IMG/VR virus record: IMGVR_UViG_2974508059_000001 | Span: 96,001 to 160,000 of that record | DNA: 64,000 bases | Reading direction: 5' to 3' (one strand) | DNA from: a virus | Taxonomy: Duplodnaviria; Caudoviricetes | Translations under genes and position numbers: made by a program | Shown here: piece after piece, positions 17,682-61,048 of the stretch | Numbering within the stretch: the stretch's first letter is position 1 | Layout: each line of letters begins with the position of its first letter | The notes under the pieces: model-generated | What the model saw: only the letters and a program-made list of their open reading frames with translations | Database searches by the model: none | Told to the model about the DNA's origin: nothing

Positions 17682-17683
17682 CA

Positions 17684-41430: not shown

Positions 41431-41463
41431 ATAAAAAGAAGAAAGGGTGCCCCGAAGGGCACC
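41431..41463 (-). terminator. Rho-independent terminator ending the radical SAM operon
   Basis: Minus strand GGTGCCC-TTCG-GGGCACC plus CTTTCTTCTTTTT. Confidence 0.8.
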
Positions 41464-41467
41464 ACTG

Positions 41468-42109
41468 TTATTCTACCGACGGATTAAACTCCGCCGCGTC
41501 GAGTGAGGCGTAATCGCCCTGCTCCGCAAATGCACGGATACGGGTTTTGTACGCGGTCAACTGAACGTGCAGCTGTGCGTTACGTGCGACAATCAGAGAG
41601 TACAGCATCTCTGTGTCTTTCGCTTCCCACTCTTCCAGCGCTTGGTTATCGGCAGTCACCCAATACTCCGGCACGGTGTTCGTTTGCACGAAGCCGGCCA
41701 GGGTGGTCAGGGTCTCACCTGCGGTCTGGAACATGTGGTCTTTGTACGCAATGTCAGCCGTGACCGCTTCACCGTACGCTGCATTAGTGGCCTGAAGTTT
41801 CTTGGCCAGCAGAGTATAGCAATACGCTTTGGTCGACTGCAACTCTTTGAGGTAATCCTTCACCTGAATCCCCAACACGTCTTTGATAAACGTTTTGGTT
41901 TGGCGTAGGGTGTAGTTGGCTTCGAACTGGGTCTGCCCCTGCTCTTGCAACTGACGCAGTGCATCTTTCTCACTGAGTCCCTCTAAGAGTGCGTAGTGTA
42001 AACGCTTGGCCAGCGTGACATCGCCGTTGGGGTCAAAGAACAACCCGTTGCGGTCAATCTGGCCATCGCCGTTTTCAAACCGCGCTTTTATCTCGTCAGC
42101 ACTAAGCAT
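41468..42109 (-). CDS. DUF4376-like tail fibre assembly protein
   Basis: C-terminal IAYKDHMFQT......YWVTADNQ..........LH......K..I pattern typical of DUF4376. Confidence 0.6.
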   Translation of the reverse strand: MLSADEIKARFENGDGQIDRNGLFFDPNGDVTLAKRLHYALLEGLSEKDALRQLQEQGQTQFEANYTLRQTKTFIKDVLGIQVKDYLKELQSTKAYCYTLLAKKLQATNAAYGEAVTADIAYKDHMFQTAGETLTTLAGFVQTNTVPEYWVTADNQALEEWEAKDTEMLYSLIVARNAQLHVQLTAYKTRIRAFAEQGDYASLDAAEFNPSVE

Positions 42110-42636
42110 TCTTTCTCTCCCACGAATCCAACTTTGGTCAACATGTCATAGGACATGATTTCAAAGTCGATACGAAGATCCAGACGGTACTGCAAGTTCG
42201 GCAACGGCTGGTCATTTTCTTGGAACGCCTGCATGAACATCATGTCATCGAAGTAATGACACGCGCTCTCGGGGTTGCGCACCATCCAGACCGGGACATC
42301 CGGGAAGGACAGACACAGTGCCACCAGAGAATCACCGCCACGATCGATAGTGCCGGTACGCAGGATGTTTACCTTTGAAGCAGGGGCCGCCAGAATACGC
42401 GCTTCGAAACCCGGGTTACGCTTTTCGATTTCTGCTAACGAGTCGTGGCCGTTCTCCACGCACTGAATCGGCAGGACAACGTTAAGAGCAAAACGGTTAA
42501 TCAAACGCAGCCAGTGATCGTTGAAATCATCGGCAGGCACGATAGCGTGAATGTTAAACAGCTTATAATGCTGTAAGAACGCTTCGATTTTGCGACTATC
42601 GTACTTCGTAAAATTCTGGAGAAGCAGGCTTTTCAT
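42088..42636 (-). CDS. hypothetical protein in the radical SAM operon
   Basis: 182 aa, overlapping both neighbours. Confidence 0.7.
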   Translation of the reverse strand: MKSLLLQNFTKYDSRKIEAFLQHYKLFNIHAIVPADDFNDHWLRLINRFALNVVLPIQCVENGHDSLAEIEKRNPGFEARILAAPASKVNILRTGTIDRGGDSLVALCLSFPDVPVWMVRNPESACHYFDDMMFMQAFQENDQPLPNLQYRLDLRIDFEIMSYDMLTKVGFVGEKECLVLTR

Positions 42637-43993
42637 TCTTGAATTGTTCCTTGCGGTCAGTTTGTTCCACAGCCATGGTCATCTCACGGATGGCGGTGAC
42701 GTGTAAAGGCTGTTCTGCAGCTTCGCGGGTGAGTTTCTCTTCAACAGCAAAGTTGCGCTTCTGTTGGCACTGGTAACAGTTACAAACAGACTTGTCGTAC
42801 TGCGATTCGTACGACCCGAAACGTTGTTTCCACCACTGCGCCACTAAGAGCTTCGCGGTAGTCCAACCACACTGGCGACGTTCGCCGTGATACTCTTTAC
42901 GAGCGTCTTCTTCACCGTCGCCATTTTCATACGCCGCCGCCACGCACGAGGCACACAGGTGCTTCGCTGGGCAACCGATACACTGGTCAGGATACGACTT
43001 CCACTGTTCCTGAACTTCGGCCAGCAGTTTACCGCCGTCGGTGTTCACGATGGTTTGACCTTCGAGCTTACCGATGGCCTGACGGGTGGTTACCGTGGAC
43101 ATGAAGCGGTTACAACCGAAGATGTTACGGTCGAAGCCGAGACAAGTCATGTACACCGTGGTGCCGCAGTGCGGACGCAGACGTTGTGGGTCGTAGCGTA
43201 CAGAGTCATCATGGATGAGCTTCTCACGCCAGTCCGGGTTCCACAGTTGGTCAACATCCAGACCGTCCGGCAGCACGTGACCGATTTCAGAGTTCTGGTC
43301 TAAGTGCAGACCTTTCTCAATGAAATACTCCGCCACTTCGATGAACTGGTTGGCAATCTCGAGTGCCATCTGGCGCGGTAACACGTCTTCGAAAACGACG
43401 TTACCGTACAGACGACCGCCCCCGGTCACATCAATCAGCGACTTCATCCCAGCACCGTACTGCATCAGCGTTTCTTTCGTGAAGGTGGCTTTCACCCCAA
43501 TCTCACGAACACCGATTTCTTGCAGAAGCTTATAGCCGGCGACCGCTGCTTGGTAAGACCCTTGACGGGACGTGGTGAAGATACGGTACTTATCGTGGGT
43601 CTCGGGCAGACCATCGATAGAGACACCGATCGACAGGTAATCTTTCCAGCGATTCAGAATCTCCAGCGCCAGCGGTTTGTCAAACAACGTGCCGTTGGTG
43701 GAGATAGAGAACACGTAAGGCAGATTGTGCTTTTTGCACAGCTCTTCTGCGGTTTCGAAGGCCGCTTTCAGCAGCTTCGGCTGCATGAAGGGTTCGCCAC
43801 CGATGATATCGATGATGATACCGTCGATACCTTGGTTCTTCGAGAAGAAGCGATGTTTATCGCGATTAAAGCAGGCGTGAATAAAATCAACGACATCAGC
43901 GACTTTGTTATTACGCGGATACTTACGCTCGTAGCAATACTCACAGTCGAGGTTGCACGATAGGTTGGTGACTATCTGGTAGGTTGCATCCAT
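42596..43993 (-). CDS. radical SAM/SPASM peptide maturase (CXXX-repeat target family-like)
   Basis: CNLDCEYC, IIGGEPF, ISTNGT, VSIDG..HD..R....GSY, NVVFED, SPASM cysteines (HCGT..GCNRF..CIGCPAKHLCASC..CGW), extra CNCYQC. Confidence 0.92.
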   Translation of the reverse strand: MDATYQIVTNLSCNLDCEYCYERKYPRNNKVADVVDFIHACFNRDKHRFFSKNQGIDGIIIDIIGGEPFMQPKLLKAAFETAEELCKKHNLPYVFSISTNGTLFDKPLALEILNRWKDYLSIGVSIDGLPETHDKYRIFTTSRQGSYQAAVAGYKLLQEIGVREIGVKATFTKETLMQYGAGMKSLIDVTGGGRLYGNVVFEDVLPRQMALEIANQFIEVAEYFIEKGLHLDQNSEIGHVLPDGLDVDQLWNPDWREKLIHDDSVRYDPQRLRPHCGTTVYMTCLGFDRNIFGCNRFMSTVTTRQAIGKLEGQTIVNTDGGKLLAEVQEQWKSYPDQCIGCPAKHLCASCVAAAYENGDGEEDARKEYHGERRQCGWTTAKLLVAQWWKQRFGSYESQYDKSVCNCYQCQQKRNFAVEEKLTREAAEQPLHVTAIREMTMAVEQTDRKEQFKNEKPASPEFYEVR

Positions 43994-44005: not shown

Positions 44006-44890
44006 TTATTTTTTAATTGGATTAAGCCAGTTCATGATGTAACGGTAGCCGTGCTCACCGATGGCCAGTGCAATCTTGTTGCAGCCACGGTCCACGACCA
44101 TCTCAACGTTCTCAGGAACTTGCAGGTCGCCATTCGGTTGACTGACGATAATTTCACTACAGGCATTACACGCATCTTCTTCGAAGAACTTCTCGAGCTT
44201 GATGATGGTGTCACGCTTGTTAATGCGGTTGAGCTTACGCATGTTGTCTTGCAGACGCTCAAAGCCGTACACGAAGTTTAACACGTGGTCAGGCGACAGC
44301 ACTTTCTTCATCTGGTTATCGAACAGGTAGTTCATGCCGAGGAAACCAAGATGGTGAATGGCGTCTTGCATTTTCATCATGCCTTCGTGCCAGCGCATGT
44401 CCCCGATCTTCTCACGGGTTAACACTGACCAGAGGATAACGTTGTCCAGCTGGGCGATGACTTCAAACGCTTCGGTATCACCGGAACGAGCAAAGTCCAT
44501 TAAACCACGGGCATCATCTTCGTAACCGTCGATGGAGACCACAACACGATGGAAGGTTTTCAAAAACTCGACTTGCTCTAAACGTAACTTACGTCCGTTT
44601 GTGAAAAGATAGTGCACGGCAGAAGGACGTTCTACGCGCATCATCTCGACCGACTCGACGAGTTTACGGTAAGACAGTAACGGCTCACCCCCCGTCCAGA
44701 TGATCTCTTCCACACCGGGATTCTTTTTCAGTAACTCCATCATTGCCTCTTCATGGGTTTTACGAGACACGTCCCCTTTGACCATGTGAATCTCACCCGC
44801 ACAAAACGAACAATTGAGGTTACACTTCGACGTCAATGCTACGTTAATGGTCTTTGCAGGTGAGTAAACATCTTTACTTAACGTTCTCAT
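44006..44890 (-). CDS. radical SAM protein (short C-terminal Cys cluster)
   Basis: CNLNCSFC, WTGGEPLL, FTNG, VSIDG; CNAC...GC near the C-terminus. Confidence 0.9.
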   Translation of the reverse strand: MRTLSKDVYSPAKTINVALTSKCNLNCSFCAGEIHMVKGDVSRKTHEEAMMELLKKNPGVEEIIWTGGEPLLSYRKLVESVEMMRVERPSAVHYLFTNGRKLRLEQVEFLKTFHRVVVSIDGYEDDARGLMDFARSGDTEAFEVIAQLDNVILWSVLTREKIGDMRWHEGMMKMQDAIHHLGFLGMNYLFDNQMKKVLSPDHVLNFVYGFERLQDNMRKLNRINKRDTIIKLEKFFEEDACNACSEIIVSQPNGDLQVPENVEMVVDRGCNKIALAIGEHGYRYIMNWLNPIKK

Positions 44891-45800
44891 CCGTCATTCC
44901 GTACAGGCGACGTTGGAAAGAGAACAGTGGGTCGGTGTCTCGTACATCTTCACCCGCCTTTAACAGACGTGGTGAGCGATACGCATCGTACAGTGCGTTA
45001 AGAACGGATTGACGCTCACCCATGCGGATAAGGTCGTCCAGTTCAACCGGGGACGAAATAAACGGTTCCAGCGCAGCCTGTTGTTCGTCGGTGAACTCTT
45101 TCAGCTGTGACTGGAGCAGGAAGCGAATCAGTTTGCGATCATCCGCCGTGGAGTTCGGGACAGCGCCAAACTCAGTCTGACAGAGATAGGCCATCCACGG
45201 TTTACGGATGCGGAGTGTTTGCGCATGCGGGTCTGCGATGTAGACCCACTCTTGCTTCTCTGCATCCCATGCAAACTTATAACTAAACGCGAGTAAGTCT
45301 GCCAAGCAGTCGATATTCGCGGCTTCAAGGCCAGAGAACGGGTGATACATTTCACGGTCTTTCTCCACGCTTCCAGTGCCGGCTTCCACCAGTTTGAATA
45401 AGTGGGACCAGCTTCCGCAGTAATCGCTGCTGTAGCTACGCACGCACACCGGACGCATGCCGAGTTCTTTAAAGGACTCGAACATCAGTTCCAGTGGTGC
45501 ACTATAGTTCAGTACCGAATCTGTGAAAAAATACTTGTCGTTGACAAGCTTCCCGGTAAAACCAGAACCGCCTAAGGCGAACTGAATGGATTTCACGTTC
45601 AGCTTGCCCACCGTGGTCGCATCAATCACGGTGTACTCTTTTTTCGTAAAGTTGCGACCGCGAAGCTTAGGCCATTCAAACTGGTCCATGGCAATCAGCC
45701 GCAGCTCGTCGTTGATGTGTGCGTTAACACTGTCCGGTGACGAGATGTGAATTGGGTAATTCATGCTCGTGCGGTACGCAAGATGATCGTTACTCTTCAT
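44874..45800 (-). CDS. hypothetical protein in the radical SAM operon
   Basis: 308 aa, AGGGGA SD, overlaps the rSAM gene. Confidence 0.75.
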   Translation of the reverse strand: MKSNDHLAYRTSMNYPIHISSPDSVNAHINDELRLIAMDQFEWPKLRGRNFTKKEYTVIDATTVGKLNVKSIQFALGGSGFTGKLVNDKYFFTDSVLNYSAPLELMFESFKELGMRPVCVRSYSSDYCGSWSHLFKLVEAGTGSVEKDREMYHPFSGLEAANIDCLADLLAFSYKFAWDAEKQEWVYIADPHAQTLRIRKPWMAYLCQTEFGAVPNSTADDRKLIRFLLQSQLKEFTDEQQAALEPFISSPVELDDLIRMGERQSVLNALYDAYRSPRLLKAGEDVRDTDPLFSFQRRLYGMTDENVK

Positions 45801-45812
45801 TAGGTTCCCCTG

Positions 45813-46022
45813 TTAACTCGGGAAGGAGACTGATTTCGCACCGCCTGAGCTACTCCAGCTACAGGTTCCGCCGCAGTTGTACGCGCCAGCACGAATCCCA
45901 CCCAAGTTGTTGGTGTTGTTACACGTTCCACGGTTGGCGATATAATCAACCGCCTGTCCCGTGGTAATATAGCGTTCGATGCTCGCCACGCGGTTACCGA
46001 TGTCTTTCAAGCTTACTGCCAT
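45813..46022 (-). CDS. short paralog of the Cys-rich repeat peptides
   Basis: MAVSLK leader, NNTNNLGG, CGGTCSWS; GGAG SD. Confidence 0.75.
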   Translation of the reverse strand: MAVSLKDIGNRVASIERYITTGQAVDYIANRGTCNNTNNLGGIRAGAYNCGGTCSWSSSGGAKSVSFPS

Positions 46023-46031
46023 AGCCTACTC

Positions 46032-46460
46032 CTACGGTCCAGAACAGCCTGCTCCACAACTCCCGCCACAGCCACTACCGCAACTTCCCGAGCACCCGCC
46101 AGAACATTTGCCTGAACAGTTACCCGAGCATGTGCCAGAACAACCGCCGGAGCAGCCGCCGCCACAGTTACCGCCACAGCTGCCACTACAACCACCGGTG
46201 CAGCTAGATGAACAGTTGCCCGAACAGGATGACGAACACCCAGACGAGCAGTTACCCGTACAGCCACCAGAACAGCCGTTACCGCACGTCCAGCTACAAG
46301 AGCCGTTACAGTGCAGTGCCGCTGGGGTGAAACCGTTGAGTAAATCAGCATTATTAGTAGTGCGTCCACCGATGTAGTTTTGCACGCCTGCTTCAGTTTT
46401 TAGTGCGGTGTTCTCAATATTGACAACACGGTCACGCACCGATTTTAATGAAATCGCCAT
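46032..46460 (-). CDS. Cys-rich (CXXX)23 repeat peptide, putative radical SAM substrate
   Basis: 50-aa leader MAISLK.. then 23 perfectly phased Cxxx units (x mostly G/S/N/T); AGGAG SD. Confidence 0.85.
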   Translation of the reverse strand: MAISLKSVRDRVVNIENTALKTEAGVQNYIGGRTTNNADLLNGFTPAALHCNGSCSWTCGNGCSGGCTGNCSSGCSSSCSGNCSSSCTGGCSGSCGGNCGGGCSGGCSGTCSGNCSGKCSGGCSGSCGSGCGGSCGAGCSGP

Positions 46461-46468
46461 TTCCGCTC

Positions 46469-46858
46469 CTAAGGGCTGCTACAACCAGCACTGCAGTTAC
46501 TGCTACAGGTGCCAGAGCAACCGCTAGAGCAGCTGCTGCCACATGAACCTGAACAGCCGCTTGAACAGCCACCAGAACACGAGGATGAGCAACCTCCCCC
46601 GCAACCACCAGAACACGAGCCCGAACAGTTACCTGTACACACGCCGCTACAGCTTCCTGAGCAGCTCGAGCAACCGTGACTACAACCTGACGAACACGTC
46701 CAACTGCACGACCCGTTACAACGGGCCCACGTATCAGGTTGGCCTGCCAATAGATTCGCATTGTGAACTTTGCTGTTCACCTGCCCCTCTACGGACGCGC
46801 CGGTTGCTGCTTGGACTCGGTCAAGACGGGCACTTAGTTCTTTAAGTGATATCGCCAT
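46469..46858 (-). CDS. Cys-rich (CXXX)21 repeat peptide, putative radical SAM substrate
   Basis: 46-aa leader MAISLK.. then 21 Cys at 4-residue spacing (one 3-residue step); GGAAGG SD. Confidence 0.85.
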   Translation of the reverse strand: MAISLKELSARLDRVQAATGASVEGQVNSKVHNANLLAGQPDTWARCNGSCSWTCSSGCSHGCSSCSGSCSGVCTGNCSGSCSGGCGGGCSSSCSGGCSSGCSGSCGSSCSSGCSGTCSSNCSAGCSSP

Positions 46859-46878
46859 TACCTTCCCTTTTTAATAAG

Positions 46879-46916
46879 ACACGGGCACTCGCCATATAGA
46901 CGAGGCCCGTGTGTAA
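46879..46916 (-). promoter_or_regulatory. putative TTAC-N16-TATG promoter overlapping a hairpin, upstream of the precursor operon
   Basis: Minus strand AATTAC-ACACGGGCCTCGTCTA-TATG-GCGAGTGCCCGTGT. Confidence 0.45.
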
Positions 46917-46921
46917 TTATA

Positions 46922-48127
46922 TTAACGTGAACCGGCATCAGCCTGTACATCGTCACGTGTGGTCAAGTTGGCGTTGACGTGCACGTTTGCCTGAACCACG
47001 CCGCCATACTGCTTGTGCAGGTACTGGGTGTGTGGATCGGCGGCAGACAGGTGGTTAGCGAGCGTCTGGTTAACACTGGCGATGTTGCCCTCGGTCGTGG
47101 TGACACGACGGGTCAGTGCGGTCAGGTCAACACGCAGCTGGTCAATCTGCTGCTGTGCGTCACCGGCTCCGGACTTGAGGTCATCAATCTGGTCTTGCAA
47201 CCCAACGGCCGTTTGCTTCAACTCATTCACGGTTTTCTGTAACGTCAATACCAGTGAATTGAGGTTGGCCACAATCAACGTCATCTTCTGGTAGTTTTGG
47301 TCTACCGTGTTCAGTTGGTCGTTGAAGGTGGTCAGCGAACTGACGATGGCATCAATGCGCCCACCCAGTGCCGTATCAGCAGCCTTAAGGTCGCCAATCT
47401 GGACGAGGGTTGCATCGATAGCTGCCTGCACGCCGGCAATCAACGCACGGATTTCGGTTGCGGTCAAACCATCAATATCGTGGATATCAAGGTTGTGCAC
47501 GTTACCCGTGGCATTGATGTGGGCATTCAGCGCGTCCAAGAAGTTATTCTTGATGTCGCCGATGATGTCTTTGATTTTCTCAAGCTGAACGGCATCGCCT
47601 GAACCAATCGCATCCAGAATACCCGAGAGCAGGGTAATGACGTATTCAAAACCAAAGATATCGCCAACGTCTTTAAACGCCGGGGCACCCGGTAGCGTAT
47701 CCGGGAAATCGATTAAGTCGGCAAAGTTCACCTTCTTATTATCAATGCCCAGAATCGCAATCGCATTTTCAATCGCAGTCACGTTCGCAGACATTGGCCC
47801 ACCGACAACCTGAGCGGTCACGATGATGTCTGTTGGAATGCTGCTGTTGGTCACTACAACTGCCATCACGACTTCTTTGTTGCCCGAGAGCTTCATGTAG
47901 GCCGGATGAGCGAAAATCAGTTCGTAGTCGGTACCACGTTTATACGGCGTGGTGGGCGAGTTCGTGGCACGCAGTTTAAAACTGTCTGCGTAAAACGGAC
48001 CTGCCGGAAAAGCAAAAGACCGGTTAACTTTACCGGAACCCAAGACCACGGGGATACTTACCGCGTTCGATGTCAGAGTTCCTTTAAGGTCAAGCGGATA
48101 CTGGAAAATAATATCACTCATCTCCAA
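46922..48127 (-). CDS. tail fibre protein (coiled-coil)
   Basis: Shared fibre N-domain (DL.G....N, PFY, G.DY), long heptad coiled coil, HLSAADPHTQY fibre motif. Confidence 0.8.
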   Translation of the reverse strand: MEMSDIIFQYPLDLKGTLTSNAVSIPVVLGSGKVNRSFAFPAGPFYADSFKLRATNSPTTPYKRGTDYELIFAHPAYMKLSGNKEVVMAVVVTNSSIPTDIIVTAQVVGGPMSANVTAIENAIAILGIDNKKVNFADLIDFPDTLPGAPAFKDVGDIFGFEYVITLLSGILDAIGSGDAVQLEKIKDIIGDIKNNFLDALNAHINATGNVHNLDIHDIDGLTATEIRALIAGVQAAIDATLVQIGDLKAADTALGGRIDAIVSSLTTFNDQLNTVDQNYQKMTLIVANLNSLVLTLQKTVNELKQTAVGLQDQIDDLKSGAGDAQQQIDQLRVDLTALTRRVTTTEGNIASVNQTLANHLSAADPHTQYLHKQYGGVVQANVHVNANLTTRDDVQADAGSR

Positions 48128-48165: not shown

Positions 48166-51100
48166 TTAAGACGACAAATTACTCGTTGGGATTAACATAA
48201 GATTGATGGTTACCTCACCCAGCGTGACCATCTTTCCGTCAGGCCCGAAGAACTTCGAGGCGACAACGACTTCCCGGTTCGACCCATTCGCGCGCTCCAA
48301 GAACGGCGGACAGTAGCTGATTTCCGGAGCCACCACACTCACCACCCCTGTGGTGTCTGCCACCGGAACATAGACATGGGAGACGGTCTCCAACACGTTG
48401 AGGTTACCGGACTGCGTACCTTGGTCTGAGGTGAATGCCACCACCGACGTCCCACTCGAGCGGATTAACTCGCGTTGGGTTGTCCCATTCCAATCGTAGG
48501 CAATAAAAGCAATGTGGCAGATGGTCCCACCGGCGGTACCTGCCTGAATGACTTCGATCCCAACCGTGTGCTGCCCGTTAGACACCGGGAAGTCCTGGGT
48601 GGCGAGCGCGTTTGACCCTTTCGAGGTAATGCCGGATGCCACACGCACGCCATCAATGTAGACGTGACACATGTCATCCACCGCAAACTTAAGTCGCAGC
48701 GTGCCCCCGGTGGTGGTCACTTTGAACTTGGTCGCATACGTACCGTAGCCCGGAATCGTCCGTGGGTTGATGTCAATCCAGATAAGCCCCAACGCATTTG
48801 CATCCGGGTTCTCCGCTGCTGTCACGGCCACTGCACGGGCAGGAGCCCAGAACAGCTCAGGCAACACTGCCCCGGAATACCACGGCTGGGAAGCCGGGAC
48901 ATAACGGTTAATCAGCGGACGAGACAACAATGATCCCACCGCCAGTGACAGTGCGGACTGACCCACGTACCCATCACCCGAGGTCGCAATCGGTAACGGT
49001 TCCAGCAGACCGAGCGGTGACTCTGCCCGTTCACGCACCACGTTCGAGCCGTGGCTGTACGCAACCCCCTCATGCTCCTCTAACTGACGTACCGCCCCCA
49101 GACGTTTCACCGGGGTAATGTTCTCCTCGATGATACGGCTGCTGTCGGTCTTGACGTAACCCACGTAAAGCAGGTTACTGCTGTCAGGGTAACGTTCGGT
49201 ACTGACCCGGTACCGCGCCTTCGTGGTGCCTTCGTCTGGGTAGACTTCAGCGTGGAAATAGAAGGTCTGGTTTCGGTAGTCACTGAACGCCGACGAGAAG
49301 TCAATGCTGTACTGGTCGAGCACGTACTCTTTCGAGTTAATGAACAGTCGCTCTGACTCGGTCAGGTAAAGAATCCACCCTTCCGCCGTCTTCACGCCCG
49401 CCAACACCACCGGTTGCGCATTCGCCGGGGAACCAAACGGACTGGCCATGAAGTCCGCAATCGGATACGCGTCGCCTGAGGAGAACACCGGGTCCAGTTT
49501 GAAATACGAATTCACCATCGCATTCAAATCTTTCACCCACACCCACGTGTTTGGGCTGTACGTTGGTCGGTCAAGCCCCAGTGCCCCGGTGGAGCTGGTC
49601 CACTGGTTACCGGTCAGGGTCAACACCGCACGGAAGTTCAATGCACCCCCATTCCCGACTTGGGCGATACGCAGCACGGACGGCAGATAGAGCACAAACT
49701 TCTGCCCATCGTTGGACACGAGTTGCGGCTGACCAAAGCGGCGGTCTTTTCCACCAAAGCTGAAATCCAATCCGACGTTGGCGATGTTCAAGTCAAGGTC
49801 GTTCTGGAACGTCAACAGTTGGAGGGTGCTGGAGCTAAACGCGAGAATCCCGTTGGAAACCGACGGGTACATCACAAAGTAGTAATGGTCGATTTTATTC
49901 ACACCGTCTACAAAGCGTTGTGCCGTGGCCTGTCCCAAGAAGAGCTGCTGCGGTGTCCCAATCGCAAAGCCCCACAGTGCGACATACAGTTTCCCGATTT
50001 GGTCAGCGGCCATCAGTCGCTCGGATGCGTAGCCGTTCGCTGCACCCGCTGGGGCGTTAGCCAACATGATACTGCGGACTTTCGCCCACTCGGTATCGTT
50101 CAGCGTCAGTTTGTCGGCGGTAAAGTTCGGGTTCCCGGTCACGTTCTTGTACTGCACCGTTTCAGGCTTAGTAAAGAAGCACCCGTTCAGCGTGCCTTTA
50201 TCTGCCGCATTCACTTTCACCATCGCCAGCTGGGACATCGCAGCGTAGGTTGCCGTGGTGATAACACGCCGGTTGTTGGTTGGACCAAAGCCCCCGTAAC
50301 CCGGTACGTCGTAATCCGTGTCGGTTGAATACAACACCTCAACGCACAACGCATCCTTGGTACCGGTGAGCCAGATGGCTTTAGAGTCCCCACCGAAGAA
50401 CAGCGGGTAGGCCATGCCAGAGGCGTACACAGACCCACGTCCTTGGTCGAGTTTGGTGGTGTTACCCACAACCGCACCTGTCGTCACATCGGCTGACAAC
50501 GAGTCGTAATGGTCACCCCCGCCCGGAACACCCATCGTGACTATCTGCACCGGGACATCACTGTCATTACCAACCGAAAGCACAGCGACCTTGTCATCGT
50601 GGTGTGCCACAAAGGCACGCTGGTTGGCTTGGGTCCCTGTCCACTTCAGTGGGTAGTTCGTGGTCAACAAATCCACGCCGGTTTTGTACTTCGCACCGGT
50701 ATCCAGTAACTGCAGTGGGAAGATTTCCGGGTGCTCCAGTGTCACCGTCAGGGTATCGAAGTCGAGCGTGAATGTCGTGTACCAGTTCTTGAAGCTCAAT
50801 GACTCGGTTGCTTTCGCCAGCCAAATCGTTGGCGTCATTGCCACCCGTAACACTTCATCCTCTTGCCCCAACACCCGGTTACACGTTGGCCCGTGCACCA
50901 GATTGCGCCCTACCGTGAAGGTACTGAGTGCGGCTGGGCTGATGTACGCTACCCGGTCGGTCTCGGTGTTGGCGGTGTCGTACCCCCCTTCGGCACGGAG
51001 CAGTAACCACGAACCTGCCACGCCCTTCATCCCGTTCAAGGTTTCAAGGGTAAAGGCCACGTCTTGTGCGCCGATGCTATTGAGTGAAACCGACGCCAAG

Positions 51101-53253
51101 GCCACACGGTAACTGTCGTTCGCCAGTCGGGTGCGCAGCAGATACACTTTACTGCCGTAGACCACGAGGTCATCCGTTTCCCCGGCGGGCACCATTGCCG
51201 CATTACTGCCTGCCACATCCATGATGGTCGGGAACGTCACTCGCACCACATTCAGGTGGCGATTGTGGTCGGCTGTCCCGGCGAGGTCAACGAGGTAATA
51301 CGCCCCGTCGCTGCCTAAACAGATAAGGGCATCCTGCCCCGGCACCACCACTGCACTGAGTGTCACCCCCGGGTACTTGGTGGTCATCCCGGCTGGCTGA
51401 TAGCGCTGTGAAGTTTGTTGGACGTTGCTGAGCGTGTTGTCGTCGTTAAAGGTACCGTAAGCGTAATAGATGTGGCGATCAGTCAGACCGTCCGTTCCGT
51501 TACGCAGAATATACAACCGGTCCCCTTCAAAACGCATCGCCCCGTAGAACTGGCTGTTGTTCTTGCCATACCCTTCGTAGTTACCCTGTGCCGGGATAGG
51601 CAGGAACCCGAGGTTGCCGTACGACGCCCCAATAACCGCCCACGTTGGAATCAGACCGTTGGCTTTGCTTTCCAAATCCGCCAAAGTCTTCTCAAAGAGA
51701 TACCCCTGTTTAGCCGTCACCACACGGTCTGTGCTGGCATCGATAATATCCCAGAGTAACACCAAGCCGGCTGCCGAAGAGCTGGCGTAGGGTACGTTGG
51801 TCACGTCTGCGAGGGTATGGGTGTGGTTGGTCAGGGATTTGTTGGCCACGGCGGCGGTTAACGCTTTGGTTACCGGCTTATCAAGCGGTGCGGTGTTCTG
51901 CATCTTCTCGACACCGACGTCCGCAGGCGTCAGGGTTAAGGTCTGGTCTGCATCAAAACCTTTGCCGTTGACGGTGTAAGTGTCATCGACGTAGTTCCCC
52001 AGCAAATCCCGCATCGCGGTAATACCCGCCTGTGAAATTGCATAACCGTCACTGAGTGAGGTACGGTTGGACGTGACCTTGATCAGACCCCGCACCCCCA
52101 CTGAGGCTTCGGGCAGGTTCGCTTCCAGACGGAACGGGGCGTAGGACTTGCCTGACCCGTAGACCTTCACGGTTTCCGTAGAGGACATGTACGCGTTAGC
52201 TGCTTTGAGTTTCACCTCGTGCAGGTACATCTCCACCATGTCGGGTGTAATCAAATACACCCCGTTGAAGACCGGAGCCAATGCATCAGGGCCCGAGTGC
52301 ACCATTAAGGTGTTCAGCCCCGCTGACATCTCCACCGCCACACCCGGGTTCGTGTTCGCACTGTCTGCGGTGAACCGTAAAGTCTTTTTGGTGGAGACCA
52401 ACACGTTCGGCCCTTTGAAGGTGATAACGTGGTCGTTGTTGGCGGTGGTGTACGTCAGGACATTGTTGTTGAGAACACGCAAGCGACCGAACACGTCATT
52501 AAACGCGGTGTCGTTACGCATCAGCAAATCAACGTGCTTTTGCTGCAAACCGGTTGTGGCCATCAGGGTCACGAGCTGGTCAATGGTGCGACCAAATGCC
52601 CGGGTGGCGTCCACGGCTTTATCCGTGACCTTCAAGGCCCCGATGTCATCCGCAGTGTACGAATGCCCGTGGGACTTCAGCAGGTGGTGCTGATACATCC
52701 CATCGTCGAACACTTTCTTGCCGGTTTGATAGATGAGCTCAGTGACTTCACTGTACGCGGCATCCATGTCCCCTGCCCGCTTAATCAGGCCCAAACGAAT
52801 GTCATTTAACGCGGAGACAATCTCATCGCGGGCAATGGCTTCGTCCAAGTCCTGTGGCGGGTCGATAGCTGGAATGGTCGGCGCATAGCGCATCAACGCA
52901 GACCAGTCTTCGTTACGGGGGTCTTTCAGGTCACTGCTGACCAGCCATTTGCCAATCTCGCTCTGCGGTACGCGGTAATCACGCCCCACAGCGTAGATGC
53001 TGTATTTGATGGCATCGTGGTTCAGCAGCATTATCCCGCCAAACACCGCGGCTTGGAATGCCTCAGCGGCTTCTTTGTAATAGTAGCCGAGGTAATAGTC
53101 CATGCCCTCGATAAGCGGGACATCATTTAAATCGGTGATAACCAGCCCGGTGCGGTAGAAAGGGCCTTCCGGCGGAATAACCGTATTGAAACGGTTTGGG
53201 AACGTCGAGACTTTCAACGTGCCTTCAAACTGGGCCGGGGTTTCCGTCGCCAT
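48166..53253 (-). CDS. large tail fibre/virion structural protein
   Basis: 1695 aa; GPFY..G.DYY N-domain, H.YTADDIGA, NTAPLDKP, HTHT fibre motifs; C-terminal VDD...VYIDG jelly-roll-like module. Confidence 0.8.
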   Translation of the reverse strand: MATETPAQFEGTLKVSTFPNRFNTVIPPEGPFYRTGLVITDLNDVPLIEGMDYYLGYYYKEAAEAFQAAVFGGIMLLNHDAIKYSIYAVGRDYRVPQSEIGKWLVSSDLKDPRNEDWSALMRYAPTIPAIDPPQDLDEAIARDEIVSALNDIRLGLIKRAGDMDAAYSEVTELIYQTGKKVFDDGMYQHHLLKSHGHSYTADDIGALKVTDKAVDATRAFGRTIDQLVTLMATTGLQQKHVDLLMRNDTAFNDVFGRLRVLNNNVLTYTTANNDHVITFKGPNVLVSTKKTLRFTADSANTNPGVAVEMSAGLNTLMVHSGPDALAPVFNGVYLITPDMVEMYLHEVKLKAANAYMSSTETVKVYGSGKSYAPFRLEANLPEASVGVRGLIKVTSNRTSLSDGYAISQAGITAMRDLLGNYVDDTYTVNGKGFDADQTLTLTPADVGVEKMQNTAPLDKPVTKALTAAVANKSLTNHTHTLADVTNVPYASSSAAGLVLLWDIIDASTDRVVTAKQGYLFEKTLADLESKANGLIPTWAVIGASYGNLGFLPIPAQGNYEGYGKNNSQFYGAMRFEGDRLYILRNGTDGLTDRHIYYAYGTFNDDNTLSNVQQTSQRYQPAGMTTKYPGVTLSAVVVPGQDALICLGSDGAYYLVDLAGTADHNRHLNVVRVTFPTIMDVAGSNAAMVPAGETDDLVVYGSKVYLLRTRLANDSYRVALASVSLNSIGAQDVAFTLETLNGMKGVAGSWLLLRAEGGYDTANTETDRVAYISPAALSTFTVGRNLVHGPTCNRVLGQEDEVLRVAMTPTIWLAKATESLSFKNWYTTFTLDFDTLTVTLEHPEIFPLQLLDTGAKYKTGVDLLTTNYPLKWTGTQANQRAFVAHHDDKVAVLSVGNDSDVPVQIVTMGVPGGGDHYDSLSADVTTGAVVGNTTKLDQGRGSVYASGMAYPLFFGGDSKAIWLTGTKDALCVEVLYSTDTDYDVPGYGGFGPTNNRRVITTATYAAMSQLAMVKVNAADKGTLNGCFFTKPETVQYKNVTGNPNFTADKLTLNDTEWAKVRSIMLANAPAGAANGYASERLMAADQIGKLYVALWGFAIGTPQQLFLGQATAQRFVDGVNKIDHYYFVMYPSVSNGILAFSSSTLQLLTFQNDLDLNIANVGLDFSFGGKDRRFGQPQLVSNDGQKFVLYLPSVLRIAQVGNGGALNFRAVLTLTGNQWTSSTGALGLDRPTYSPNTWVWVKDLNAMVNSYFKLDPVFSSGDAYPIADFMASPFGSPANAQPVVLAGVKTAEGWILYLTESERLFINSKEYVLDQYSIDFSSAFSDYRNQTFYFHAEVYPDEGTTKARYRVSTERYPDSSNLLYVGYVKTDSSRIIEENITPVKRLGAVRQLEEHEGVAYSHGSNVVRERAESPLGLLEPLPIATSGDGYVGQSALSLAVGSLLSRPLINRYVPASQPWYSGAVLPELFWAPARAVAVTAAENPDANALGLIWIDINPRTIPGYGTYATKFKVTTTGGTLRLKFAVDDMCHVYIDGVRVASGITSKGSNALATQDFPVSNGQHTVGIEVIQAGTAGGTICHIAFIAYDWNGTTQRELIRSSGTSVVAFTSDQGTQSGNLNVLETVSHVYVPVADTTGVVSVVAPEISYCPPFLERANGSNREVVVASKFFGPDGKMVTLGEVTINLMLIPTSNLSS

Positions 53254-53275
53254 GTGTAAACTCCCACTTCTTAAA

Positions 53276-53331
53276 GAAAACGGAAGCCGTCCCCCGAGAG
53301 GGACGGCGCTTACGGACGGGTTGTCCGTAAG
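53276..53331 (-). terminator. double hairpin/terminator between fibre genes
   Basis: CTTACGGAC..GTCCGTAAG and GCCGTCCC..GGGACGGC followed by TTCCGTTTTCTTT on the minus strand. Confidence 0.55.
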
Positions 53332-53340
53332 GACTTCCCG

Positions 53341-56300
53341 TTAGTTCCAAACACCGAGGTCGGTGCTGACCCCTTCTTCTGTTCGCATGATGCCCGTGAC
53401 CCAGTCCCACATTGCGGTGGTCAGGTTAAACGGATGGTATTTGCACAGGAAGAGGGTTGGGGCAGTGTCTTCCATCACCACAACCGCAGCATCGTCATTA
53501 AAGTCGATGGTGCCCACAGTCTGTGCCCCGCTCTTAAAGATAAGTGTGGACTCTAAGAAGAACGGGCTGGCAATGGCCAGTGGGACAAACTCAATGTACA
53601 ACAAATCACCGGCAAAGCCTGTGACCGTTGGCGTCAAACGACTGCTTGCCACGGCCCCGTTCTGCGGGCTGTTGTTGTGCACCGATTTCCCATTGACATA
53701 ACTGCGGAAGTTGTAATTGGCGTTTACCGTCCAATCCAGCGCATCGAAGTCCGCAGGGGCTTCCACGACCAAGGCAAAGCGTCGGCTGTACGCAGCGCCC
53801 CGATAAGGGTTGGCTGTGCTTGACCAGACTTTCGCCCGGGTAATCTCGGCACCCACACGCTGTTTCGACAGGATACGATCCGGATGTGCTACCAACGGAC
53901 TGTACTTACTGCGGGACGGCATAACCGCATTACCGGCAGTGGGCAGTCCGATAAACTCCGTTGCCCCCGACAGTGCTGCCCAGTTTGCAGGTATCCCACC
54001 ACTGAGTAACTTCTGAACCACTCCACGACCATTCCCCTGTACCGCGTAATCGTTGGCACGGGTGTAGGCTTCAAAGAGGCTACGGAAGTAACTGTAGTTG
54101 TGGTAATCGGCAGACGGGTAGATACCGGCATGCAGGATATGCTGACTTGTGGAGGCCAGCTCCTTACGGTTAAAGCCCACAAAGCCATTCATGCAATCCC
54201 GAACATCAAACGGCAGTTCGTACGTAACTTTGCGAATAATCGGTGTTGACCGGTTGTCCTCAAACCGCACCAGTTCCACACGCAAGGTGTTGGTCTTCGG
54301 TACGTAGCGGTAACGCACGATATAACGCGACGCTCCTGTCTCCTTGACTTCCTCACCCCAAACACTCGGGTCAGTTGCCTCCACCAAACTCATGTCGTAC
54401 GGGTGCACATCGAACGGCGTAACCGCCGGTGCTGCACGGTTAGCACTGTTGGCAGCGTTTACGGGCAACTCCGGCATGTACCCATATTCGGCCTCATTGG
54501 TGAACACGTTGATGTGGAAGAATTTGTGCTGACCGTTACGCGCTTTCTGTGCAAAGGTCAGCCACAAGTCCAACTGGGTGTTACCCAGCACACGACGAAT
54601 CGGAATATACAGCGCCAGTGAGCCCTCGTACGTGAGCAGGTTGTTCTCATACGGGTTCGCCGGGGTCATCCACTGCTGCGGACCACTGTACCGGGTATCC
54701 ATCCACATCGTCAGGGGGCCGGTACCGTCAACCGTCGGTTTGAGTGTGAGCACACTCGCTGCGAGGTTTGCTGTACCCGCCACACCCGCCACAATGTAGT
54801 CAGGTTTGTCGGAGGCAATGGGCAGACGTTTCATCCCCGGGTTATCCGAGAGATACCAGTCACTCGACTCAGGGACATGTGCCGGAATCAGATTCTGGTG
54901 CGTACCCATCTCTTGGAACTGACCAAAGTCTGCCACCGTGTCAAACTCAACCGTTGTCGTGGTCATTCCTGCCGGACCACAATCCACATACCCGACGTAG
55001 GTCTGGGTAATGCTGATGTCGTTGGAGGCAATCGGTTCAGCACGACCAAACAGTGAATTGGTGCTCATGTTGAGATACACAAAGTGGCGATTGTTACGCG
55101 GGTTGATAAACTCGCTTAACTGGGCCAGCTTCGTATCAGGCGATGATGCCACGATAGGATAGTTGTTATCCCAAATCTCAAATGCCAATGCTGCCGGTTT
55201 GGTGCTGTCGTTGCAATCCGCCCGTAAGGCGACCGTGTGCACCGGGGATGCCGTATCCACATCAAATACCCCGTCAACCGTCGGCGCACCGGAAGTCACG
55301 AGGGTGCCGTTGATGTAAACACTGATGTTTCCCCCGGCCGAGGCGATCACCCTCAGACGGCCTGAGGAGCACGCTACGCGCTCTTTAGCCAGAACTGAGA
55401 TAATGGACAGATCGCCCTGCTGCGAGGCGCTGAGGCCGATTGTGCGTGCGTATAAAGGAAGTGTGGTGGCACTGGAGGTTAAGGCCAACTGCGTATTGTG
55501 CAGAACACCCTTTGCCCAGTTACGCTCGATGACATTCGTCGGCTGGTACCAGTTGAACATCGGGGTGGTTTCCAAGTTCACTGACCCGGTTACCCGGCCT
55601 TCTTTGCGACCACCGTTGGCCATGTAGAAGTATTTCAAGTCCTGCACTGACAACGCCAGCTTGGAACTCGCTACCGACCACGTTGCCCCGCCAATCACCG
55701 CATAGTCCGTCACGGCTTTGGGGTTGGCCCCTTTGAGGTTCTCTGCCACGGCTGCCAGTTGCAGCTGCAGTTGATACAACACATTGGGTGCCACACCCCG
55801 ACCGTCTGCCAGCGAGGCTTCGGTTGGCGCAATACGAATCACCCCAAGGTCGGCTTCAGTAGCATTCGGGATATTGAGGGAGGCCCACGCATGTTTGTGG
55901 CCTTTGTCAGACTTGCCCGCGAGTGCGGTTTGCAAATCACCTGACAACGGTTTGTCCACATCCGCGGTGTTGTCCGCATCCCCTAACCCGATATCCGCTT
56001 TACTGAGGACACGGGCACCGTCGTCCATGGCCACCGAGTTCAGTCGGGTCGCTTTCGGGACGAACTGCCCAAGCGTCGTATCGTACGCTGCCACTGCACC
56101 CGGGGTGACTGCTTGTCCGGTTGCCACATCGCTCTTCGCAGTCACCAATGTCACCGCGCCGTCGGTTGTGGTCGTGGCATCCGGCAGGGTGACGTTCCAT
56201 TTCACCGGGTCGGCTTTAGAGCCTTTCCCACTCGGGGTCAAGCCTTGCGTTTCAGACTGGACGTAAAGCTTGGAGTCATCCGGGTCAGTTCCGCCCCCGT

Positions 56301-57375
56301 CATCTTCGGCTTGGTAGTCCATCAGCGTAGTGGTGGTCAGTAGGGTTACCCCATTCACCGAGAGCTTATCCATGCCGAGTGCGTTGCCTGAAGACTCGAT
56401 ACGCATGACGTTCGAACCCGCGACCCATTCGAAATACGCCACATCGCCTTTATAGCCTGCCCGCAGTGCAATCCCACCCGTGGTGGTCAGGTCAAAGCCG
56501 GTGTCCGTAAAGAGCACGCTGGACGCCCCGTTCTTGGATTTAAAGAGTGGACGGTTGGCCTGTACCAACTGCACAAACGTACCTTGGATGTCTTTAAACG
56601 CCCACGTCTCGATATACTTGTCGATATCGGACTGCTGCAAACCCAGTGCCCGAATCTCTGCGGTTAACTCCCGCAGGGTTTTCCCGTAGGCGAGGAAGGT
56701 ATCCGCCGCTTTCAGGGAAATCGGGTGTGCCCCCATTTGGGTGACATTGGTTCCGTGGGGGTTTTTGGCATTGACGTGTGACGGATAATCGAAGGCTTCA
56801 ATCTCTGTGTGCAGACTTTCGACGGTGACTTTCAGCTGGTCAAGTTTGGCTTTGATTTGATCGTTGGCCGAACCGGCATCGAGTTCCACGTCATGAATCG
56901 CAGACGCCACGTACTTCTTGTTCAGCAGGTCATGCCACGAGGTGGCTGCCGGCATCACGGGATACAAAGAAGGGCGGTTGTCCACATTCAGCCAGCGTGC
57001 ACTGGTTGGGTTGTTCAAATACTTCACTAACGTGTCGAAGGATTCCAACAGTCCGTCGTAATACGTCCCGCCCAAGTGCTGACCGGTGAAAATCAGTGAG
57101 CCCTTGATGGCCGGGTTAATCACGTTAACCCCGCAGAACACCGGACTGGCCACTGAGTCGTCCAGCTCTGTCAGCTGATAAGCCAACTCGTAATCGACGC
57201 CCTGAGTCAGAGGGTTAGAGGCAGTTGCCTGCCTCACGGAAAACCCAGACTGGAAGAACGGACGGTGCTGGAGTACCAGCACACGTTCCGAGGCGATGTC
57301 CGATTCGAGAATACGCTCCTCAGTAAACTGATTGGTCTTGGCGGTGCCTTTCCAATCGTAAGGAATCGCACTCAT
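53341..57375 (-). CDS. large tail fibre/virion structural protein
   Basis: 1344 aa; YDWKGTAKTN, PFF, QGVDY, HVNAKNPH, KADIGLGDADNTADVDKP, HKH. Confidence 0.8.
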   Translation of the reverse strand: MSAIPYDWKGTAKTNQFTEERILESDIASERVLVLQHRPFFQSGFSVRQATASNPLTQGVDYELAYQLTELDDSVASPVFCGVNVINPAIKGSLIFTGQHLGGTYYDGLLESFDTLVKYLNNPTSARWLNVDNRPSLYPVMPAATSWHDLLNKKYVASAIHDVELDAGSANDQIKAKLDQLKVTVESLHTEIEAFDYPSHVNAKNPHGTNVTQMGAHPISLKAADTFLAYGKTLRELTAEIRALGLQQSDIDKYIETWAFKDIQGTFVQLVQANRPLFKSKNGASSVLFTDTGFDLTTTGGIALRAGYKGDVAYFEWVAGSNVMRIESSGNALGMDKLSVNGVTLLTTTTLMDYQAEDDGGGTDPDDSKLYVQSETQGLTPSGKGSKADPVKWNVTLPDATTTTDGAVTLVTAKSDVATGQAVTPGAVAAYDTTLGQFVPKATRLNSVAMDDGARVLSKADIGLGDADNTADVDKPLSGDLQTALAGKSDKGHKHAWASLNIPNATEADLGVIRIAPTEASLADGRGVAPNVLYQLQLQLAAVAENLKGANPKAVTDYAVIGGATWSVASSKLALSVQDLKYFYMANGGRKEGRVTGSVNLETTPMFNWYQPTNVIERNWAKGVLHNTQLALTSSATTLPLYARTIGLSASQQGDLSIISVLAKERVACSSGRLRVIASAGGNISVYINGTLVTSGAPTVDGVFDVDTASPVHTVALRADCNDSTKPAALAFEIWDNNYPIVASSPDTKLAQLSEFINPRNNRHFVYLNMSTNSLFGRAEPIASNDISITQTYVGYVDCGPAGMTTTTVEFDTVADFGQFQEMGTHQNLIPAHVPESSDWYLSDNPGMKRLPIASDKPDYIVAGVAGTANLAASVLTLKPTVDGTGPLTMWMDTRYSGPQQWMTPANPYENNLLTYEGSLALYIPIRRVLGNTQLDLWLTFAQKARNGQHKFFHINVFTNEAEYGYMPELPVNAANSANRAAPAVTPFDVHPYDMSLVEATDPSVWGEEVKETGASRYIVRYRYVPKTNTLRVELVRFEDNRSTPIIRKVTYELPFDVRDCMNGFVGFNRKELASTSQHILHAGIYPSADYHNYSYFRSLFEAYTRANDYAVQGNGRGVVQKLLSGGIPANWAALSGATEFIGLPTAGNAVMPSRSKYSPLVAHPDRILSKQRVGAEITRAKVWSSTANPYRGAAYSRRFALVVEAPADFDALDWTVNANYNFRSYVNGKSVHNNSPQNGAVASSRLTPTVTGFAGDLLYIEFVPLAIASPFFLESTLIFKSGAQTVGTIDFNDDAAVVVMEDTAPTLFLCKYHPFNLTTAMWDWVTGIMRTEEGVSTDLGVWN

Positions 57376-57385
57376 TTAGTTCTCC

Positions 57386-60300: not shown

Positions 60301-61048
60301 AATTGCGCAAAAGCATCGCAAAAATAGGCGGGGTCACTTGACTATACAACGACTTCAGATTGAAATTAACAATCAGCCGGTAATCGCCCATCCCGTTTGA
60401 ATTATACCCGGTAATGGTATAAAACGGCCCGGTGGGTTTCTTCTTAACCAAATAACTGAGGTCGTTCTGGTAAACCACTTCGCCACGACTGAAAAAACCT
60501 TCGTGGTTGGTTGTGGGTACAGACGAGGTGGTGTAGGGGTCAGGCAGGGCGGGTTTTTCGGCAATCTTCTTACCGATGGCCGCGATGGCCTGCATCAGTT
60601 CTAACTCACCTTGCCAGTTGGCTTTGTCGAATTGGATATCGACCGGGGGGAAATAGACTTCACCAATCACTTCTTCCCACTGGCAATCAACCGGGTACTT
60701 GTCGGCGTTTGCCTGACGTTCCGCTGCGATTTGTGCTGGGGTGGCGATACCACTACCAACTGCATGGTAGTCCACGGCAAAGTTATTGACGTAGTCTTCG
60801 TTGGTTATCCAGATGCTGGCATGGATGTTTCTGCCGGTGCGTTGGATGCCGGTCATGAAGCGATGCCCAAACACGTAGTCACGACCGAATTTCAGTGTTT
60901 TACCGTTAGAGGTAACCACGACAGAGCCGGTGTAAAAAGGGGCGTTTGCAGGAATGAGCACTCGGTACTTCGAACCGATAGGCGTTACCGCCTCTTGGGG
61001 AATGAGATTCCCGCTTTCTTTCTGATGTGGGTCAAAGACGACTGCCAT
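57386..61048 (-). CDS. large tail fibre/virion structural protein
   Basis: 1220 aa; APFY..G.DY, HVGDTNDPH..IGA, NTPD..LPVS, HTHT; GAGGAG SD. Confidence 0.8.
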   Translation of the reverse strand: MAVVFDPHQKESGNLIPQEAVTPIGSKYRVLIPANAPFYTGSVVVTSNGKTLKFGRDYVFGHRFMTGIQRTGRNIHASIWITNEDYVNNFAVDYHAVGSGIATPAQIAAERQANADKYPVDCQWEEVIGEVYFPPVDIQFDKANWQGELELMQAIAAIGKKIAEKPALPDPYTTSSVPTTNHEGFFSRGEVVYQNDLSYLVKKKPTGPFYTITGYNSNGMGDYRLIVNFNLKSLYSQVTPPIFAMLLRNYWGSGFAGLHLRYMDGDLKLALYAGDNTYTYYPIAAAGKGLAIFNKPFTVTVINSKTHDTVSVVVTQEGQTVLNYTVDIQNPPASVSAEWTLFNVRSKLSDRTTDLRLQFDVGVNDTFSFNDFPGYGYSADDNAPVLALLKDYAEIVNELYRGAPAHDHVGDTNDPHEDTPGSIGALPLNDIAFDSALAFGRTQAALAVYINNLLPKATDLNNRILRIGNNTPVPGAFTLQPGLGQITSTSAANETAGVETIGTVDDKMIRLLSKTFQRHVTTQNASAKAGTNELVLYSDSRKLQWKGKPLLDPTTVIPYLPGVTGSGDGLFYGENTATFTINGNGIQTVPFKVQWQAPSNANRDTSALRKLTVDFGTSDDLLATPALLSKLDALFTGKLLLAKANINGMALSSSVTIDKLTFNLSAVSNTPDTLLPVSTAQQTELDKYADTTHTHTPAQLGIVAGTDKVKGLVKTGKLVDDNTAALDAAAVTPLVTRTDTLATTAGSVDSGAVIDIIRYGTPGATAIPNALTASGWMVSIKANTYFVRLRYDVPLGSFNLTQLTSSPSNKTFFVYVDVVNNAGLYRVSLTKLPESATLTEIGSFTTDDSSVLDSTISNVTRLGEFRELVEHAASKNDHSHRAMTQAEFGFTFNNKGEEWVGGMKGSLRRDADWRARGVDGWRSRENVRWGALNAAYEGLVFSAGGVNAADHLIMQCITPYYAMQDASVTFTPTDVTGNDDTLFEVMGLGFTDSRGNFNRFSVLVSRSNYISDVNGNLCHLGFAINYGSPKQIIIGASDYPVNNANTWASLLATVAVFADAATLRFTVSLPSSAVVTLNLATGVLTMGTQTIDLNSRLSAAGITLAEATNVNLKRHYGVGGSFSGLFRCRVDAPAAMSDNNVYNTLVSFVENFSGLERARYIEGVLTTEMLAMTDTQLRTAIVKANTDTHYSGIPRFISTADLILYTDKVNKRYTGVVLRD

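Follow-up and report, generated by a model that had tools for sequence, protein, structure and literature searches.

A radical SAM cassette with three cysteine-ladder peptides in a jumbo-phage tail operon: a probable enzyme-matured fibre tip

Among described radical S-adenosylmethionine (SAM) systems, the CXXX-repeat system, with TIGR04114 (PF27846) as target repeat, TIGR04115 as maturase and TIGR04117 for targets, has been defined bioinformatically and its chemistry is uncharacterised. A precedent for a radical SAM enzyme that staples a small subunit of a larger complex is QhpD, which acts on QhpC, the gamma subunit of quinohemoprotein amine dehydrogenase (PMC5682303). Here, we analysed a 64,000-nucleotide stretch of DNA (the window; positions 96,001 to 160,000 of IMG/VR virus record IMGVR_UViG_2974508059_000001) from an SPN3US/Wellingtonvirus-like jumbo phage of enterobacteria, in which a minus-strand operon encodes three small cysteine-rich peptides (A, B and C) together with two radical SAM proteins. 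Sequence comparisons indicate that each peptide is a separately encoded copy of the module that terminates tail fibres, consisting of an amphipathic helix, a fibre repeat motif and a cysteine ladder. Because they copy a fibre-end module that is always accompanied by the same radical SAM kit, the phage probably finishes its fibre tip chemically, and the best reading of the locus, one we consider probable though well short of certain, is an enzyme-matured and probably heterotrimeric fibre tip. The initial annotation of this DNA knew of no radical SAM-matured virion component, and we likewise found no published account of one, or of this system, in the open-access literature.

All genes of the operon lie on the minus strand. 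Peptide A (129 residues; 46469..46858) has a 46-residue N-terminus containing the helix and the motif, followed by a CXXX ladder of 21 cysteines, and matches TIGR04114 and PHROG6085. Peptide B (142 residues; 46032..46460) has a 50-residue N-terminus followed by a ladder of 23 cysteines in strict spacing of four, with a match to TIGR04114. The spaces between the ladder cysteines of both are filled with Ser, Gly, Thr and Asn, with no Asp or Glu, and their TIGR04114 scores (23.7 bits for A, 24.4 bits for B) lie above the cutoff of 20. Peptide C (69 residues; 45813..46022) has the same N-terminus and junction and contains three cysteines, only two of them in the ladder; it matches PHROG6085 (E 7e-25) and gave no match to TIGR04114. 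A good ribosome-binding site precedes each of the three open reading frames (ORFs), the trio is kept in all SPN3US-like loci examined, and every complete free-form cassette contains three paralogs, one of them short. The three small genes are real and conserved. An Atlas search with peptide B was uninformative.

In public records these genes are poorly represented. The correct SPN3US ORFs lie at L001:17094-17486, 17497-17901 and 17917-18123; the GenBank/RefSeq entry omits peptides A and C and places gene 166 (SPN3US_0166) in the wrong frame over B. Elsewhere, CR5_157 is annotated on the wrong strand (L002:9151-9956) and the pEa_SNUABM_11 record lacks peptide B (L003:9534-9962). Some SPN3US-like phages carry an insert of ~1 kb between the genes for A and B (L008:4517-5516, L015:4518-5516). 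At another locus, a 153-residue ORF located just 3′ of the DUF4376 gene (L021:4216-4677) shares its first six residues with peptides A and B, after which come His-x-His repeats of fibre type; it has no PHROG match.

A search for longer relatives of the peptides returned seven proteins of 258-559 residues that end in the same junction and ladder. Four of these loci were fetched, and downstream of the fused target each encodes orthologs of the 308-residue accessory protein, the short radical SAM protein and the long radical SAM protein in the order seen in the window, with the two radical SAM proteins fused in two cases. All four cassettes are embedded in tail modules, one in a podovirus, one in a P2-like myovirus and the others in two further phages, and the N-terminal parts of their targets match tail-fibre families. 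Since these four loci (L033-L036) had been selected for the junction motif, they were excluded from the unbiased count and the search was repeated from the enzyme side using a maturase profile. This identified nine further distinct loci of a close clade (32-38% maturase identity, versus 23-29% for other radical SAM proteins). The accessory gene was present in 9/9. Across the orthologous cassettes of podo-, P2/Mu-like and other phages, the accessory proteins matched a profile of the accessory family at E 1e-12 to 1e-33. At seven of these loci the ladder is fused to a protein of 247-568 residues. Three of these targets match tail-fibre families and one a virion structural family; another is closely related to a target with a fibre match, and the last two have no other match, each following a gene for a 1,200-residue protein in a tail-like gene run. 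The remaining two loci encode free, leaderless ladder peptides of 76-79 residues, in which only 14 residues make up the N-terminus; a T7-type fibre gene immediately precedes them. Overall, seven of the 11 fused targets, with the PHROG6085 module at the C-terminus, have N-terminal parts that matched tail-fibre PHROG or Pfam families (e.g. tail-collar PF12571 at E 2e-40, or a T7-type anchor). A metagenome scan returned distant radical SAM proteins only, among the matches listed. Taken together, the gene arrangements and domain matches indicate that, for most of the enzyme clade, the module forms the end of a fibre.

The junction ahead of the ladder was analysed with a 14-column matrix. Four of the seven enzyme-found fused targets scored 13-20, above all 7,773 background windows, and nine of the 13 best-scoring windows among 1.09 million were such junctions; the other three fused targets contain a different fibre-like junction segment. 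With three targets using another junction and two having none, the leader is no recognition element common to these targets. Because the enzyme clade serves this junction, another one, or none, the 46-50-residue N-terminus is likelier to be part of a fibre that has been kept than a leader serving recognition, and we regard the segment as more likely fibre-derived. A conventional leader-core peptide, in which a recognition leader is removed, or a transient assembly chaperone that leaves, is an explanation to which we attach very little probability. It would account for the leader-like length of 46-50 residues and the conserved junction, and a peptide C almost without a ladder is what would be expected of a helper; however, fused fibres contain this segment internally, it is missing from further targets of the clade, neither enzyme has a recognition element for peptides that are made by ribosomes and modified after translation (RiPPs), and the operon has no peptidase. 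More broadly, the ORF list and family searches revealed no protease, peptidase, exporter or transporter in the operon. The dedicated protease or exporter of ranthi- and sactipeptide systems is missing from the operon, and in place of the conserved cleavable leader of such systems orthologous targets have either nothing or another segment.

More distant radical SAM genes were found beside Cys-ladder proteins of 228-538 residues in gut phages and prophages (L061, L065, L066, L070, L079, L032); several of these loci lie behind baseplate or fibre-like genes, and they have no PHROG8030-type accessory. In two unrelated prophage-like contigs (L016:3018-5686, L017:6420-9083), a tail gene is followed by two CxxC-repeat peptides, a distant radical SAM gene and then holin/amidase genes, an arrangement that constitutes a second peptide-radical SAM kit in the fibre slot.

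The peptide N-termini themselves were examined for fibre-like features. The initial annotation described a heptad-like helix at their start, and this was borne out: the quoted segments are present, hydrophobic positions recur at a spacing of 3-4 in ortholog alignments, and a single-chain AlphaFold2 model of peptide B is helical over residues 5-19 with a predicted local distance difference test score (pLDDT) of about 70, within a low-confidence whole model (59). A fibre-type motif, N-A-x-x-L-x-G, follows at residues 33-39, 37-43 and 36-42 of peptides A, B and C (46742-46762, 46332-46352 and 45897-45917, minus strand), in which only the Gly is nearly invariant (26 leaders). Its proposed resemblance to a generic trimeric-fibre repeat also stands, since gp21 of Stenotrophomonas phage Smp131, an ordinary P2-like fibre free of radical SAM enzymes, contains a near-identical repeat with approximately the same 13 residues as one junction; one fused target has the motif both internally and at the junction. 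The annotation had further pointed to comparable motifs in the three large fibres resident at the locus (DATRAFGRT, DTFLAYGKT, DSALAFGRT). Here, a hidden Markov model of the leader gave no match, and the motifs scored -3.5 to 0.7 with the matrix, where true pre-ladder junctions of fused fibres reach 13-24 and the highest background score is 10.3. As the leader profile gave no fibre match among the resident proteins, the PDB or the PHROGs and the matrix scores were close to background, likeness to the resident fibres was dropped as an argument. Searches for longer relatives using the leader only returned family members only.

The proteins that would act on the ladders are encoded downstream of the peptides. 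The 308-residue accessory protein (PHROG8030; 44874..45800) marks the cassette in every close-clade locus. Its structural model is confident (pLDDT 88), and it has no fold or Atlas match; compared by structure as a possible stand-alone RiPP recognition element, it gave no Foldseek match and a best VIA Z of 4.8 over 52 residues. The short radical SAM protein (294 residues; 44006..44890) has its CxxxCxxC motif at residues 23-30 and is probably auxiliary, because in relatives it may be absent, truncated, fused to the long enzyme or moved. Variants that are truncated without the SAM-binding motif, fused or moved were observed at L021:1156-1650, L033:11490-13499, L059:5505-6999 and L056:8158-9012. 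The long enzyme is a radical SAM/SPASM maturase (465 residues; 42596..43993) with CxxxCxxC at residues 13-20 and eight conserved SPASM cysteines (276, 284, 294, 338, 341, 347, 350, 375). TIGR04115 is its best family match, yet at 113.8 bits against a cutoff of 350, and the nearest solved relative is CteB (E 5e-29). The SAM motifs start at residue 13 in the long and residue 23 in the short protein, leaving no room for an N-terminal RiPP recognition element, and none was found on either. The long protein shares 93% identity with its counterpart in Erwinia phage pEa_SNUABM_11 and 59-67% with those of SPN3US, CR5 and ~55 other records. A 182-residue protein (SPN3US gp162; 42088..42636) is confined to cassettes of the three-peptide form. 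No NCBIfam partner-protein model of the CXXX system matched the 308-, 182- or 213-residue ORFs or the accessory orthologs.

Gly, Ser, Thr and Asn, the residues that fill the ladders, are known to accept sacti- and ranthi-type links. Thioether formation by the maturase is likely but not assured, because a recognition element is lacking and the eight SPASM cysteines match the count of anSME rather than the seven of AlbA. That the peptides join the tail but undergo other chemistry (cysteine oxidation or desulfurisation, epimerisation, C-C links, or a metal/Fe-S-loaded ladder with no thioether staples) seems to us improbable. Such chemistry would agree with the anSME pattern of eight cysteines, which fully ligates both auxiliary clusters, as opposed to the seven of AlbA (PMC5682303), and with ladders devoid of the Asp/Glu acceptors used by QhpD. 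Conversely, the nearest solved relative, CteB, forms thioethers, among named families the best matches are PapB-type and CXXX maturases, and suitable acceptors for sacti- and ranthi-type links are present throughout the ladders.

The surroundings of the cassette are those of a tail operon. The minus-strand order is the paralogs of SPN3US gp170-168, gp167, peptides A, B and C, the 308-residue protein, the short radical SAM protein, the radical SAM/SPASM maturase, the 182-residue protein, the DUF4376 protein, a hairpin and the endolysin gene, and spacing between cassette genes is tight, with ribosome-binding sites. Upstream and co-oriented are three large baseplate/fibre paralogs (48166..61048, minus strand), orthologs of SPN3US gp168-170 in the phiKZ gp131 family. 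They are followed by the gene for a coiled-coil tail protein of ~400 residues (PHROG2163; 46922..48121; likely start ATG 48121, giving 399 residues), the ortholog of SPN3US gp167. In SPN3US, gp167-170 are tail proteins (PMC10052503), and gp167 was identified as such by mass spectrometry, with 880 spectra in tailed versus 5 in tailless particles (PMC10052503 suppl.). The initial annotation placed the operon between a coiled-coil fibre gene and a DUF4376-like gene, and this holds, DUF4376 being recognised through orthologs and lying five genes downstream. The operon is closed ahead of the endolysin gene by an intrinsic-terminator-like hairpin (41446..41463, minus strand), identified by consensus match only. 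The endolysin (40787-41371) belongs to GH108 and has a peptidoglycan-binding domain, SPN3US has no endolysin at this position, and a probable DUF1353-type gene is next (39982-40668).

The 400-residue protein ends in a fibre-type His..Pro-His and beta motif without a tip domain, which fits a tip supplied by the peptides and makes this protein their candidate carrier. A 515-residue homolog from Vibrio phage pVp-JHP1101 has ~115 extra C-terminal residues forming a further C-terminal domain, and that genome gave no match to the maturase or the accessory protein. Full-length maturase and accessory protein were found in 58 records and a full-length 400-residue protein in 60. PDB sequence searches with the 400-residue protein, a 1695-residue protein and one fused target returned generic coiled coils only. 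Pseudomonas phage pPa_SNUABM_DT01 (L279:6986-14627) has a different radical SAM kit in the same slot: behind its homolog of the 400-residue fibre lie a cupin gene and genes for three radical SAM proteins of another type, and none of the ORFs read contains a Cys ladder. The SPFM records, including L281 (LR535911.1), gave fragmentary maturase and accessory matches, with an unexpected gene set in LR535911.1 that is possibly a record artefact; they were not used as evidence of dispensability.

The 213-residue protein (SPN3US gp161; 41468..42109) combines a cassette-specific N-terminal half with DUF4376. The window ORF has no direct Pfam match, and its orthologs (31% identity) match DUF4376 at E 5e-9 to 9e-12, a domain annotated as a tail-fibre chaperone in Alteromonas phages (PMC10579305). 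A 93-residue ORF elsewhere (L028:4606-4887) is weakly similar (E 0.004) to the N-terminal half, a resemblance which suggests that the gene for the 213-residue protein is a fusion in which a domain of the cassette is joined to a fibre chaperone's. Published proteomics reported SPN3US gp161-163 as trace, non-virion proteins only; these proteins are therefore made.

Several observations weigh against a virion fibre tip and need to be set against the evidence above. At L023 and L024, the same cassette with three peptides is flanked by an Acb2/Tad1 gene on one side and GIY-YIG/GroEL genes on the other, tail genes being absent from the surrounding 10 kb, and L028 has non-tail genes downstream and a contig edge upstream. 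The L023 and L028 cassettes keep helix and motif and lack the DUF4376 half; either tail genes are scattered in those phages, or the free form has another job. A tree test of the free form nested among fused forms did not show derivation (approximately unbiased test, p 0.53). The whole leader matched no tail-fibre PHROG or PDB chain, and the 46-50 residues ahead of the ladder match no tail family, so that the peptides have no recognisable virion-anchoring domain of their own and attachment would need a partner. The correlation between a tipless fibre and the cassette comprises one related clade and one counter-example only. Finally, peptides A, B and C do not appear in published SPN3US virion protein lists, although the databases searched probably lacked the correct ORFs; the 2023 database had 273 entries (PMC10052503). 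Because GenBank/RefSeq omit or mis-frame the ORFs, their absence from the lists is probably uninformative. From their sequences, A and B would each release three unmodified tryptic peptides of 7-13 residues from the N-terminal part, and C would release none.

These points bear most directly on an alternative in which the module is fibre-derived or shared, but the modified peptides of the three-peptide lineage act off the virion, in the infected cell or after lysis, through binding of metals or thiols, through counter-defence or by acting on cells nearby. We judge this unlikely, while giving it real weight. The location of L023/L024 among non-tail genes and next to one that is anti-CBASS-like would suit such a role, as would the grouping of the three-peptide cassettes, including L023 and L028, in one clade (support 100/99) with its own extra gene; bacterial CXXX-repeat targets, which share the TIGR04114 match, are presumed to be free peptides, and no peptide has been reported in virions. 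On the other hand, all SPN3US-like copies lie inside the tail operon together with the DUF4376 gene, the helix and fibre motif are retained, the operon has neither an exporter or protease nor an immunity gene, and the mass spectrometric absence is probably uninformative. The proposal of the initial annotation, a fibre-derived and probably uncleaved leader with a product that is likely part of a virion fibre, therefore survives in part: it gains from the module that ends tail fibres in orthologous cassettes and from targets that are leaderless or use an alternative junction, and loses from the weakness of the resident-fibre argument and from one close cassette outside a tail module.

Returning to the enzyme-matured fibre tip, we propose the following model. 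Late in infection, the radical SAM/SPASM enzyme and the 308-residue accessory protein would modify the ladder, most likely by putative Cys-based cross-links to neighbouring small residues, and the peptide N-terminus would be kept rather than cleaved. Peptides A, B and C may then bundle via this N-terminus, plausibly 1:1:1, replacing the homotrimer that fused fibres would form; a heterotrimer is suggested by the three paralogs, one short, in each free-form cassette. The DUF4376 protein could help to load the bundle onto the tail, where the tipless 400-residue fibre is the most plausible site, and the result would be a distal appendage, stiff or resistant, with a role in contacting the host. In its most specific form, the distal fibre tip of SPN3US-like phages would consist of three separate peptides with ~20 radical SAM cross-links each, assembled as a heterotrimer on a tipless fibre, from a module that can be fused to or detached from unrelated fibres; we put forward this version tentatively, at somewhat less than an even chance. 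If the fibre-tip reading is correct, covalent RiPP-type chemistry enters virion morphogenesis, biocontrol phages of Salmonella and Erwinia have an unrecognised adsorption element, and an enzyme processes long cysteine ladders without a classical leader. For SPN3US, amber genetics and tailless mutants are available, as are raw spectra (PMC5694885, PMC10052503), in which the mis-annotated peptides have very probably never been searched for.

Compared with described fibres, the locus resembles trimeric fibres with D/N-A-D-x-L-D-G repeats and DUF4376 chaperones (Smp131 gp21; Alteromonas V22/A5) in its repeat, chaperone domain and genomic slot, whereas no known fibre has a radical SAM-modified Cys ladder or a tip split over three small genes. 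The host-encoded HXS antiphage system (HxsA-D; PMC13128918) likewise uses two radical SAM proteins and a small partner on a repeat-bearing protein at the phage-host interface, but its effector is a periplasmic His-x-Ser protein with a peptidoglycan-binding domain, in contrast to phage-encoded Cys ladders without a signal peptide, and scores against HxsB (65.9 bits, cutoff 370) and HxsC (45.2 bits, cutoff 267.9) are far under the family thresholds. QhpD links Cys to Asp/Glu within an enzyme subunit, whereas here these acceptors are absent and the complex would be the virion. As with CteB (PDB 5WGG), PapB and AlbA, a radical SAM/SPASM enzyme is encoded beside small Cys-rich substrates; unlike them, the present system has no N-terminal recognition element, eight rather than seven SPASM cysteines, no protease or exporter and no Asp/Glu in the ladder, and its product, unlike ranthi- and sactipeptides, is apparently structural rather than secreted. 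The CXXX-repeat system shares the cysteine at every fourth residue, with A and B above the TIGR04114 cutoff, and TIGR04115 as best match of the long enzyme. It differs in that the maturase here is far under the cutoff, the partner is PHROG8030 and a second, short radical SAM protein is present; our loci come only from phages and prophage-like contigs, with targets fused to or beside tail fibres. Thus, by these comparisons the system belongs neither to TIGR04115 nor to a characterised ranthipeptide or sactipeptide family, and by analogy it would act as a RiPP maturation kit of the CXXX-repeat kind that has been turned towards a virion fibre.

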